Below, in pieces: positions 18,141 to 20,044 of a stretch of DNA of 38,199 nucleotides. The position numbers and the translations under genes are program-made. This DNA comes from a virus. The notes under the pieces are model-generated. The model did no database searches and had not been told where the DNA came from. It saw only the letters and a list, made by a program, of their open reading frames with translations. Position 1 is the first letter of the stretch, and each line of letters opens with the position of its first letter. The stretch lies in IMG/VR virus record IMGVR_UViG_3300045988_034846, positions 1-38,199 of that record; one strand, 5' to 3'.

Positions 18141-18776
18141 TTGTATAGAAATATAAGAAATTACGAGAACGTGACAAAAATGAATATACAGGGTGTTGGG
18201 ATGTACGACATACCGGCAATAGCCCCGGCAGAGTACCAGGAGGCAGAGTTGATAAGCTTCAACTATGCCAAGTCATGCAAGAGCCCGGCTGATAAGGCAG
18301 TACATTTCTTTGTTGATGATTATCAATTCAACAGAGTTTGGAACTGCGCTGATGACTATATATCAATGCTTAGAAAGTTCAAGTATGTATGTACGCCCGA
18401 CTTTAGTCTGTACACAGACCACCCTAGAGCCATTCAGATTTATAACCACTATAGAAAACATTGGTGTGGTGCTTATTGGCAGGCTCACGGCATCAGAGTA
18501 GTGCCAACAATTGGATGGAGTGACGAGGCTAGCTTTGCATGGTGCTTTGACGGAGAGCCAACAGACAGCGTAGTGGCGGTCAGTTCTGTAGGGACACAGA
18601 ATAGCGAGTACAGCAAGGAACTATTCCTTGCCGGATATAGAGAAATGATGAAGAGATTGACCCCGACACACATTATCTTTTATGGCAAGGCGCCAAAGGA
18701 ATGCGAGGGAAACATAATCAGAGTTGAGAGCTTGTCAGAGAAGCTCAAAAAGCGAGGTACGTTGAATGAGGTATAG
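18141..18776 (+). CDS. DUF4417 domain protein
   Basis: 211 aa with an uncertain start (TTG 18141, ATG 18180 or ATG 18201). The core (HFFVDDYQFNRVW...CTPDFSLY...IYNHYRKHWCGAYWQ..GI.VVPTIGW) is typical of DUF4417. Confidence 0.65.
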   Translation: MYRNIRNYENVTKMNIQGVGMYDIPAIAPAEYQEAELISFNYAKSCKSPADKAVHFFVDDYQFNRVWNCADDYISMLRKFKYVCTPDFSLYTDHPRAIQIYNHYRKHWCGAYWQAHGIRVVPTIGWSDEASFAWCFDGEPTDSVVAVSSVGTQNSEYSKELFLAGYREMMKRLTPTHIIFYGKAPKECEGNIIRVESLSEKLKKRGTLNEV

Positions 18777-19314
18777 AGCACAGATTTTTGGAGGACGCGG
18801 AGGCGGTTCCGGTCGTGGTGGCGGTGGATGGTCTGATAGTGAAGTAGGAGCTACACCAGCTAAATTCATGTACAACGGCGCTAAAAGAAAGACCGGTGGC
18901 GAAGATGGCTATGTCAAAAATTCAAAGTATGAAAATGGACTGCATGATATAGATGGTGGCAAGACCACAGCGGAACAGTTTGCCAACCAGTTTAAGACAC
19001 GTGAAGAGCTTGACAAGGTACACAATTACCTTGTCGATAAAAACGCAAGCGTCAATGCAAAGATTAGACAGCTCAAGAGTGCTGATGAATTGAGGAAGAA
19101 CCCGAAGCTATACCATGAAGCGAAAGCCACGCGAGAGGCAAGCAATGCAGTCAATGACCGTAGAAGCAAGGTAGCACCTGTAAAAGCAGAAAAGACAGTA
19201 AGAAAGGCTGACGATGAGTATACCTCATCAAGAACCTCAACATACGATAGATGGTACAAGCGGAATCGTGATAATTTCGCAGCATATTATTTTGGAAGCA
19301 AAGGAAAGAAATAA
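18766..19314 (+). CDS. Leader+RGG paralog 1 (MRYRAQIF-GGRGGGSGRGGGG...)
   Basis: 182 aa. It overlaps the DUF4417 stop by 11 nt. The N-terminal motif is shared with the next two ORFs. It has a basic C-terminal half. Confidence 0.7.
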   Translation: MRYRAQIFGGRGGGSGRGGGGWSDSEVGATPAKFMYNGAKRKTGGEDGYVKNSKYENGLHDIDGGKTTAEQFANQFKTREELDKVHNYLVDKNASVNAKIRQLKSADELRKNPKLYHEAKATREASNAVNDRRSKVAPVKAEKTVRKADDEYTSSRTSTYDRWYKRNRDNFAAYYFGSKGKK

Positions 19315-19316
19315 GA

Positions 19317-19628
19317 ATGAATCTACAGTTTTTCGGTGGCAGAGGTGGAGGAAGTGGCAGAGGAAAAAGCTCAGGCTCAAGCGATGGCGGGGAACTGGGC
19401 GGAACAGTTGCTATACACAGACAGATGGAACCCGATGAGCATAACAGAGCCACAGTTGAGAGATATTACATGACGGGCAACCGTAATGTATTAACCCGCT
19501 GGGACGAGGACGGCAATGAACTTGACCATGAGATAACTATACAGGAACCAGTGAGACTAACGTTCAAGACGCGAGCAGAGGCGGAGGCCTATGCCAAGAA
19601 GATGAAATATAAATACATGAATCTGTGA
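19317..19628 (+). CDS. Leader+RGG paralog 2 (MNLQFF-GGRGGGSGRGKSSG...)
   Basis: 103 aa. It starts 2 nt after the paralog 1 stop. Its N-terminus is the closest match to the L27-type NLQFF leader. Confidence 0.7.
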   Translation: MNLQFFGGRGGGSGRGKSSGSSDGGELGGTVAIHRQMEPDEHNRATVERYYMTGNRNVLTRWDEDGNELDHEITIQEPVRLTFKTRAEAEAYAKKMKYKYMNL

Positions 19629-19636
19629 GGTAGCAT

Positions 19637-20044
19637 ATGAGGATGAATTTACAGTACCACGGCGGTCGTGGTGGTGGAAGCAGCAGGGGGGGCGGTAGCC
19701 CTGCAGGTGTAAGTTTCACCGATTCAAAGACCGGTAAAGAATACAATTACTATTTCTACAAAGGCGAGGATGGTAAGAATTACTACAGTACAAGCATAGG
19801 CGGACTGCCTAAGCCGACACCAAACAACATGAGCCATGAGGAAATGGTAGAGCGTCTTAAACAGAATACAGGAAATGTTAAGAGTATCAGCAAGACGGAA
19901 AAAGCCAAAGCGGAGAAGGCATACAAGGTAGAGAGAGCAGAAGCAGACAGACAGCTCAATAATGCTTATGCAAATGAAAAAGAATTTGTTAAAAGGTCAA
20001 GGGCTGTAAGAAAAGGATTGAGGGGCACGAAGAGAGGAATATAG
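19637..20044 (+). CDS. Leader+RGG paralog 3 (MRMNLQYH-GGRGGGSSRGGGS...)
   Basis: 135 aa (alternative ATG at 19643). SD is GAGGTA. It has a K/R/E-rich C-terminus. Confidence 0.7.
   Translation: MRMNLQYHGGRGGGSSRGGGSPAGVSFTDSKTGKEYNYYFYKGEDGKNYYSTSIGGLPKPTPNNMSHEEMVERLKQNTGNVKSISKTEKAKAEKAYKVERAEADRQLNNAYANEKEFVKRSRAVRKGLRGTKRGI

Follow-up and report, generated by a model that had tools for sequence, protein, structure and literature searches.

Three consecutive open reading frames (ORFs) lie between a DUF4417 gene and the terminase small subunit gene (terS) of IMG/VR virus record IMGVR_UViG_3300045988_034846, of which the whole stretch of 38,199 nucleotides (nt), here called the window, was analysed. 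The phage is of the siphovirus type and temperate, with a Clostridia host; among cultured phages, Dorea phage DO134P1 and Roseburia phage Jekyll are closest to it. The three ORFs (copies 1, 2 and 3; Table 1) encode unrelated small proteins with a common two-part N-terminal module, in which a leader resembling those of substrates of the cysteine protease Prp precedes a Gly-rich tag beginning GGRG. The tag is almost certainly a genuine module linked to the DUF4417 gene, and the system as a whole is best explained, with roughly an even chance of being right, as a signal, linked to DUF4417, for the handling of polymorphic accessory or effector proteins, which may be virion cargo.

An earlier sequence-only reading of the window had described the starts and positions of the three ORFs correctly, and its spacing was also confirmed, with copy 1 overlapping the DUF4417 stop by 11 nt and gaps of 2 nt between copies 1 and 2 and 8 nt between copies 2 and 3. 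The neighbours that it named were likewise recovered: DUF4417 (1e-57 in Pfam), terS, which starts 17 nt past copy 3, and, at 24290-24577, a Prp homolog (PF04327). In the six-frame ORFs of the window, GGRG is confined to these three N-termini, once in each, compared with a mean of 0.003 and a maximum of 1 tagged start per sequence in 300 first-order Markov (dinucleotide-frequency) resamplings of the window. The Arg codon of the tag varies by copy (CGC, AGA and CGT), indicating that conservation and selection act at the protein level. The alternative that the tag is a conserved DNA-level site was rejected, as both Arg and Gly codons differ between copies.

The sequence-only reading had treated the three genes as a small paralogous family, a description that does not hold. 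Pairwise BLASTP detects no similarity past the first ~20 residues (E 0.8 to 42), and each of the three mutually unrelated bodies forms a separate family with its own relatives. The same applies to the last codons of copy 2 (ATG AAT CTG), which had been taken as a mimic of its own start: they encode the conserved C-terminus of its family, KYKY[MLI][NS]L, and their interpretation as a recombination scar was rejected.

A DNA-pattern scan of viral contigs for MNLQ[FY]FGGRG returned 46 loci, in which leader and GGRG head at least eight unrelated bodies, and many genes adjoining these leader-selected loci, found by looking for GGRG near ORF starts, begin with M-GGRG directly, which makes the tag the core and the leader optional. 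In total, 368 distinct tagged proteins cluster by body into 56 clusters, and across about 300 related loci more than 50 unrelated bodies carry the tag at their head. With weighting by 26 body families, its consensus is G-G-R-G-[GSA]-[SGA]-S-G-[ILFM], with Ser at position 7 in 81%, Gly at position 8 in 66% and a hydrophobic residue at position 9 in 70%. The window copies carry Arg at position 9, as in 11% of families, and their Gly/Arg expansion, which gives each tract two RG repeats, is local to the window phage. The description of these tracts as RGG-like therefore needs revision: across the 26 families the conserved element is GGRGxSSG followed by a hydrophobic residue, with one Arg in place of the conserved repeated RG units of RGG/RG-motif proteins. 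A full-text search of the literature found no phage paper on the GGRG tag, its link with DUF4417 or Prp leaders on such proteins. The system extends the known use of Prp sites on phage proteins.

Two resemblances of the tag were considered and set aside. Mimicry of the L27 N-terminus was compared by eye, and only the basic residue 3 and Gly 5 align. In many related Clostridia phages, the Walker A region of the large terminase subunit (TerL), ..YYDL[YFS]GGRGSTKSS.., closely resembles NLQYF/GGRGSSSG (L152:7468, L158:6371 and L200:2970, among others; here and below a slash marks a predicted cut), and the window TerL has KGSAGSGKS instead. This is probably a coincidence of Gly-rich loops, and TerL GGRGSTKSS matches were removed from the motif scans as false positives of the pattern.

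Linkage of the tag to DUF4417 was evident from both directions. Among 116 loci chosen solely by a DNA pattern for MGGRG[AG]SSGI, a DUF4417 gene lies upstream on the same strand within 1.55 kb in 102, the rest comprising 12 without upstream sequence and two chance ORFs of 23 residues. When loci were chosen by DUF4417 alone, one to three M-GGRG genes were present just downstream in 76 of 79 viral contigs and in 58 of 78 genomes (one per species), although many of the viral contigs are near-duplicates from one gut virome dataset, so that these counts overstate the independent cases and weigh less in favour of the linkage than they seem to; body diversity and the 45-99% range of DUF4417 identity are better guides than raw locus counts. 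Five more of the 78 genomic loci have variant tags (MAKGxSG[FL] or MGGRSAKSG). In the 46 leader-selected loci, the gene directly upstream encodes a DUF4417 protein 57-68% identical, including in loci whose terL is only 24% identical or escapes detection. Tagged arrays consist of one to four genes directly after DUF4417, usually before terS, and all three ORFs of the window belong to the class defined operationally by a GGRG-x-S-S-G-hydrophobic tag after Met or a leader, in a gene directly 3' of DUF4417 on the same strand. The sequence-only reading had placed DUF4417 correctly and used it as a mere landmark; it proves to be the tag's obligate partner.

The genome records name as hosts Lachnospiraceae, Oscillospiraceae, Ruminococcaceae, Christensenellales and other Clostridia; in a search for the host of the window phage, the best match among species genomes was 68%, to a Roseburia metagenome-assembled genome. 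Many Javan streptococcal prophages share the arrangement of tag and DUF4417, and so do Streptococcus pyogenes phages A25 and Str01, which, like Roseburia phage Jekyll and Dorea phage DO134P1, are cultured phages with the module. In S. pneumoniae phage MM1 the tagged gene follows a ParB-DUF4417 fusion, and DUF4417 in phages is often fused to a ParB-CTPase fold (bioRxiv 10.1101/2025.10.10.680097). The annotated 'peptidase' gene of mycobacteriophage Che12 is placed alike, and an in-frame upstream start gives it MGGRGG, with a phrog_4415 match from profile position 1 (5e-133).

Variant tags replace GGRG after some DUF4417 genes, including MAKG[SKN]SG[FL]S, MAK[AT]RSGLSKT and MGGRSAKSG (L196, L199, L204, L209 and L163). 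The DUF4417 proteins of the MAKG-type loci L196, L204 and L209 are mutual nearest relatives, a grouping compatible with co-divergence of DUF4417 and tag.

Ahead of the tag, the leaders of the window phage take two forms. A Y-x-x-Q-[LI]-F style is present on the scaffold (ending ..LNYWTQLF/EDG), the capsid protein (..AYRKQLF/APE), the major tail protein (MKYNKQLF/GNE) and copy 1, and an L27-like NLQ[FY][FH] style on copies 2 and 3, so that the phage may hold up to six candidate Prp substrates. Prp cleaves the capsid and scaffold proteins of phage 80alpha at F/A, and the motif is also found on a tail protein, that of phi13 providing a precedent for a leader on this class (PMC5744158). In the window, the TIGR02126 profile on the major tail protein begins at residue 34. 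The Prp homolog matches PF04327 above its cut-off, placing it among Prp-family cysteine proteases, and matches the NCBIfam Prp models weakly. It contains NGHA..(12)..PCEAVT, in which the His-(12)-Cys spacing equals that of the catalytic dyad His22/Cys34 of S. aureus Prp (PMC9405229). As Prp-substrate leaders, copy 2 (MNLQFF/GG) agrees in full and copy 3 (NLQYH/GG) and copy 1 (YRAQIF/GG) in part, and close relatives of copies 1 and 3 have canonical NLQ[FY]F.

Compared with L27 of Firmicutes and the capsid and scaffold of 80alpha, the tagged proteins share a short extension ending ..[ND]LQ[FY]F followed by small residues, an available Prp-family cysteine protease, here phage-encoded, and reuse of the motif on non-homologous phage proteins (PMC5744158, PMC9405229). 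They differ in that the residues after the predicted cut are the Gly-Gly of a conserved tag and not A-S/H-K-K, and in that the proteins are small, non-structural and accessory, with a leader that is optional within each family.

This leader/no-leader dimorphism occurs in 11 body families, including all three of the window. Relatives of copy 1 have MDINLQYF, MILNLQYF or MVMNLQFF ahead of GGRG, or are leaderless and start M-GGRG; a leaderless relative of copy 2 starts MGGRGGSSGISSQ..YYMTGKRDV; and copy 3 has relatives with MVMNLQYF, with VVIDLQFF and with no leader. Without exception, the leader stops precisely at the first Gly of the tag, and the majority of tagged members start M-GGRG without a leader. 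Judged from this distribution, the leader is an optional, lineage-specific addition and the tag is the older element. The initiator Met is removed before Gly by methionine aminopeptidase and the leader always ends at the first Gly, so both routes would give the same mature N-terminus. All three bodies have leaderless relatives that start M-GGRG, which makes the junction of leader and tag, where the cut is predicted, a real boundary. The dimorphism thus supports cleavage at the predicted site more strongly than any other evidence presented here, and cleavage by Prp at this junction is considered probable. The Prp-type leader proposed by the sequence-only reading therefore gains comparative support from leader form, the phage Prp homolog, similar leaders on structural proteins and leaderless relatives.

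The bodies behind the tag are diverse. The three window proteins gave no match in Pfam, PHROGs or NCBIfam, except a sub-threshold match of copy 2 to NDUFS4 (PF04800, E 0.005, 17.5 bits, below the cut-off of 31.9). In the AlphaFold2 (AF2) model of copy 2, residues 1-26 are disordered and the body has a predicted local distance difference test score (pLDDT) of about 80-85; its top Foldseek match is 2jya/ATU1810 (E 0.018, probability 1.0), followed by NDUFS4 subunits (probability 0.85-1.0, E at least 0.018). A phmmer search with copy 1 against 1.84 billion representatives gave only 18 matches, all in one small family with the motifs AR[IV]xYNxAKK and TTTYDRARKRRMKNFDxWF. Elsewhere, tagged bodies include the PF03496 ADP-ribosyltransferase (ART) exoenzyme domain (4e-32, 1e-24, 2e-6 and 3.9e-6), the PF15644 papain-fold toxin 1 or glutamine deamidase domain (1.9e-8), DUF6883 (3.6e-14) and a HEIGH family with an HExxH zincin motif, which matches weakly a PHROG annotated as 'pilot protein for DNA ejection' (3.5e-6). 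Effector function, one of the roles suggested earlier for the three ORFs, gains support from the ART and deamidase toxin domains among tag relatives, and similar repertoires have been described for phage effectors that are packaged in heads and injected (PMC5512222, PMC9503650). Tagged family K01 (e.g. L083:5762) and MM1 orf29 (L132:3563-4309) have invariant H-x-H-P and S..D residues; a JAB-peptidase reading of this family was dropped, as Pfam and PDB-profile searches did not confirm it.

These bodies also bear on a rival that develops the function first proposed for the array, in which paralogous Prp-processed proteins would bind nucleic acid through mature RGG-like N-termini and aid DNA packaging or condensation. 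The K/R-rich tails described for copies 1 and 3 were confirmed (pI 9.8 and 9.9), and the two RG repeats per tract and the position of the array next to terS would agree with such a role. It is nonetheless improbable, given that the bodies are unrelated, that copy 2 is neutral (pI 7.0), that a single Arg followed by S-S-G-hydrophobic replaces any RGG repeat across families, that tagged ART and deamidase toxins are not DNA-condensing proteins, and that the linkage is to DUF4417 and not to a particular terminase.

Under the handling-signal explanation, the tag would be the ancient defining element and a shared handle that the DUF4417 protein recognises or acts on. It would stay masked until Prp, either the phage copy or the host enzyme, removes the leader to leave a mature GGRG... 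end, which leaderless members would reach by ordinary removal of the initiator Met. The tag would then route a polymorphic, recombining set of accessory or effector proteins, for which the most plausible destination would be the DNA-filled capsid, with delivery into the next host in the manner of T4 internal proteins. That the tagged proteins are virion cargo is a real possibility, though less likely than not.

The internal proteins IPI, IPII, IPIII and Alt of phage T4 are unrelated proteins from a variable locus that have in common a short N-terminal sequence trimmed by a phage-associated protease. This set has ADP-ribosyltransferase and anti-defence functions, and its gene content varies among close relatives. 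The window array is alike in its shared N-terminal sequence on unrelated proteins from a variable locus, but it has no sequence or protease homology with the T4 system, its tag is retained where the T4 sequence is removed, its partner is DUF4417 where that of T4 is the scaffold core, and its proteins are only candidate virion proteins. PHROG and Pfam searches with the three proteins gave no match, and a gene for a prohead protease is absent between portal and capsid, so the comparison is one of analogy and not of membership. In encapsulins, a short disordered Gly/Ser-rich terminal peptide defines diverse cargo for an HK97-fold shell; this too is an analogy only, and the tag travels with DUF4417 between phages with different head genes. 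Alt, an ART, is packaged in the T4 head and injected (PMC5512222). Toxins fused to MuF and polyvalent proteins also place ART, papain-fold peptidase or deamidase and zincin-like cargo among packaging genes, and injection is predicted for them (PMC5512222, PMC9503650). In these, effectors are fused to a folded head domain (MuF or portal), whereas here a tag of ~9 residues takes the place of the carrier; no MuF match was found in the three window proteins, MuF being a separate gene.

Several further points weigh against the handling-signal explanation. At the predicted cut, copy 3 has His at P1 and copy 1 has Ala/Arg at P4/P5, both atypical for Prp sites. These residues would suit a rival in which the leader is kept, serving as a Prp-binding decoy or chaperone handle by which Prp of host or phage is recruited or titrated, or as a tolerated extension. 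Such a role would agree with findings in 80alpha, where cleavage of capsid and scaffold is dispensable and an intact scaffold leader is required for assembly (PMC5744158), and with inhibition of Prp by its cleaved leader peptide (PMC9405229). It is most unlikely, however, as in 11 body families leaderless orthologs take up, after Met, at exactly the residue that follows the leader, for which selection for the same mature end is the simplest account, and as Gln at P3, aromatic residues at P1/P2 and small residues at P1'/P2' (Gly-Gly) fit the described Prp pocket (PMC9405229).

Also to be set against the handling signal and its exposure by Prp are phages of the L008 type, which have leaders on tagged proteins and none seen on the presumed (unconfirmed) capsid ORF. 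The leader is therefore not tied to Prp-processed heads, and the pattern implies, on comparative grounds, use of host Prp and a leader role specific to tagged proteins; phage and host Prp might each serve one leader class. In family K01 and MM1 orf29, extensions unlike Prp leaders (MEH, MAKN, MPTIALN or 63 residues) precede the tag, which is thus not always at a free N-terminus. Of the genomic DUF4417 genes, roughly one in four lacks a tagged neighbour. The table of 12 virion proteins of Str01 detected by liquid chromatography-tandem mass spectrometry (LC-MS/MS) contains neither the tagged protein APZ81907 nor the DUF4417 protein APZ81899, and does include terS, a holin and an amidase (PMC6195288); low-copy cargo could have escaped this proteome. 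Cleavage, contact between DUF4417 and tag, and virion location are proposals drawn from comparison.

The Str01 virion data favour another rival, in which the tagged proteins are late cytoplasmic effectors that are not packaged and act in the producing cell, for example against defences sensing terminase, portal or capsid, with the tag as a substrate or regulatory handle through which a DUF4417 enzyme modifies, activates or neutralises them. The many invariant polar residues of DUF4417 give it the enzyme-like character that this account needs, and it has been proposed that terminase-adjacent ADP-ribosyltransferases might counter immunity aimed at the packaging machinery (PMC9503650). This rival is considered unlikely, though the most credible of those weighed here: the sharing of one N-terminal tag by over 50 unrelated bodies points more to a signal for trafficking or loading than to a regulatory site, the placement at the start of the packaging operon and the ART, deamidase and peptidase-like repertoire match known or predicted injected proteins (PMC5512222), and no modification chemistry could be assigned to DUF4417 from structure and profile searches.

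The DUF4417 protein itself has 3116 close homologs, with invariant polar residues at H55, D59, D60, D87, S89, D93, K106, H107, C135, D137 and E139, as would be expected of an enzyme. Its AF2 model (pLDDT 86.5, predicted template modelling score 0.83) gave no significant Foldseek match in the PDB, the best being weakly TIM-barrel-like (E 0.027), a result that also counts against the handling-signal explanation; sequence and profile searches against the PDB found nothing. Against viral models, true DUF4417 entries came first, followed by DpdA/TGT-like 'queuine tRNA-ribosyltransferase' entries (E 1.5e-3 to 7.6e-3, TM 0.42-0.50), a suggestive resemblance between models that serves as a lead only. 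A literature search found no paper on DUF4417 function. A more specific form of the handling-signal explanation would make DUF4417 a TIM-barrel-like enzyme that uses the tag, possibly the alpha-amino group of Gly1 set free by Met removal or Prp cleavage, to couple effectors to phage DNA or a packaging component, so that ADP-ribosyltransferases, deamidases and small inhibitors would ride with the genome into the capsid and on into the next host. This is a long shot, which, if true, would represent a protein-delivery mechanism without known counterpart in tailed phages.

The array is variable among close relatives and recombines within the tag. In contig L062 a single chimeric gene fuses the 5' end of copy 1 to the copy 3 body, with the body of copy 1 and the whole of copy 2 deleted; the junction falls within the shared 18-nt tag stretch GGTCGTGGTGG(C/T)GGTGGA. 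Two contigs have a duplication of six amino acids in the copy 2 tract. These events indicate that the repeated tag-coding sequence acts as a recombination point that shuffles cassettes. Recombination at the leader, as suggested by the sequence-only reading, was thus right in that recombination occurs, but it is placed within the tag by L062 and is not evidenced by the end of copy 2. Across 16 phages with DUF4417 at least 93% identical, five have three genes, ten have two and one has the chimera, copy 3 being present in only five.

Tagged genes in public records start past the tag, 27 nt downstream in A25 (L331:1501-1911) and Str01 (L332:901-1311) and 165 nt downstream in Che12 (L133:1061-1900), so that the deposited proteins lack the MGGRG N-terminus. 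Should the tag be a signal for loading or handling, it would define a large and readily recognised class of phage accessory proteins as yet without annotation, including toxin-type enzymes, in phages of gut Clostridia and streptococci and perhaps in mycobacteriophages. It would also give a first functional context for DUF4417 and the genes that follow it, allow anti-defence genes to be found by position and motif alone, and offer a tag of ~9 residues with which chosen proteins could be loaded into phage particles. Prp, an enzyme of ribosomal and capsid processing and a drug target, would in addition unmask phage effectors. Mitomycin-inducible Roseburia phage Jekyll and S. pyogenes phage A25 are test systems at hand.

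Past the array, genes follow in the order terL, portal, MuF, thioredoxin-like gene, Prp homolog, scaffold, capsid and major tail protein (Table 1). The scaffold start was set at an internal Met following relatives, in which the protein is 219 residues as called in L002-L005.

Table 1. Positions of the array, its leaders and tags, and related genes in the window; a slash marks the predicted cut.
Feature	Positions	Strand	Remarks
DUF4417 gene	18141..18776	+	Pfam PF14386 1e-57; phrog_8680 1.7e-70
Copy 1, 182 aa	18766..19314	+	starts MRYRAQIF-GGRGGGSGRGGGG; body basic, mature pI 9.8
Copy 1 leader	18766-18789		MRYRAQIF
Copy 1 tag tract	18790-18828		GGRGGGSGRGGGG
Copy 2, 103 aa	19317..19628	+	starts MNLQFF-GGRGGGSGRGKSSG; body with predicted NDUFS4-like fold
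Copy 2 leader	19317-19334		MNLQFF
Copy 2 tag tract	19335-19364		GGRGGGSGRG
Copy 3, 135 aa	19637..20044	+	starts MRMNLQYH-GGRGGGSSRGGGS; basic tail, pI 9.9
Copy 3 leader	19637-19660		MRMNLQYH
Copy 3 tag tract	19661-19696		GGRGGGSSRGGG
terS, terminase small subunit	20062..20508	+	downstream boundary of array; PF03592 7.5e-41
MuF, separate gene	23045-24031		
Thioredoxin-like gene	24028-24306		WCTPCK motif; PF00085 on 90-95% identical homologs
Prp homolog, candidate leader peptidase	24290..24577	+	PF04327 5.3e-12, 46.2 bits against a cut-off of 27
Scaffold protein (DUF4355)	24694..25353	+	PF14265 5.9e-24
Scaffold leader	24694-24729		MKKKLNYWTQLF/EDG
Major capsid protein	25356..26312	+	phrog_544 1.7e-51
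Capsid leader	25356-25397		MNKNRTIAYRKQLF/APE
Major tail protein (TP901-1-type)	27739..28281	+	TIGR02126 1.9e-27
Tail protein leader	27739-27762		MKYNKQLF/GNE

Rfam and promoter/terminator scans found nothing relevant. A perfect palindromic hairpin, AACCACCCGAAAGGGTGGTT, is present at 18091-18110, 30 nt 5' of the DUF4417 start, where it closes a stretch of ~700 nt without a convincing gene. It could serve as a terminator, or as a regulatory site where the late operon begins. The thioredoxin-like gene lies between MuF and the Prp homolog and overlaps both, an unusual placement within the head module, and its product might keep the cysteine protease reduced.

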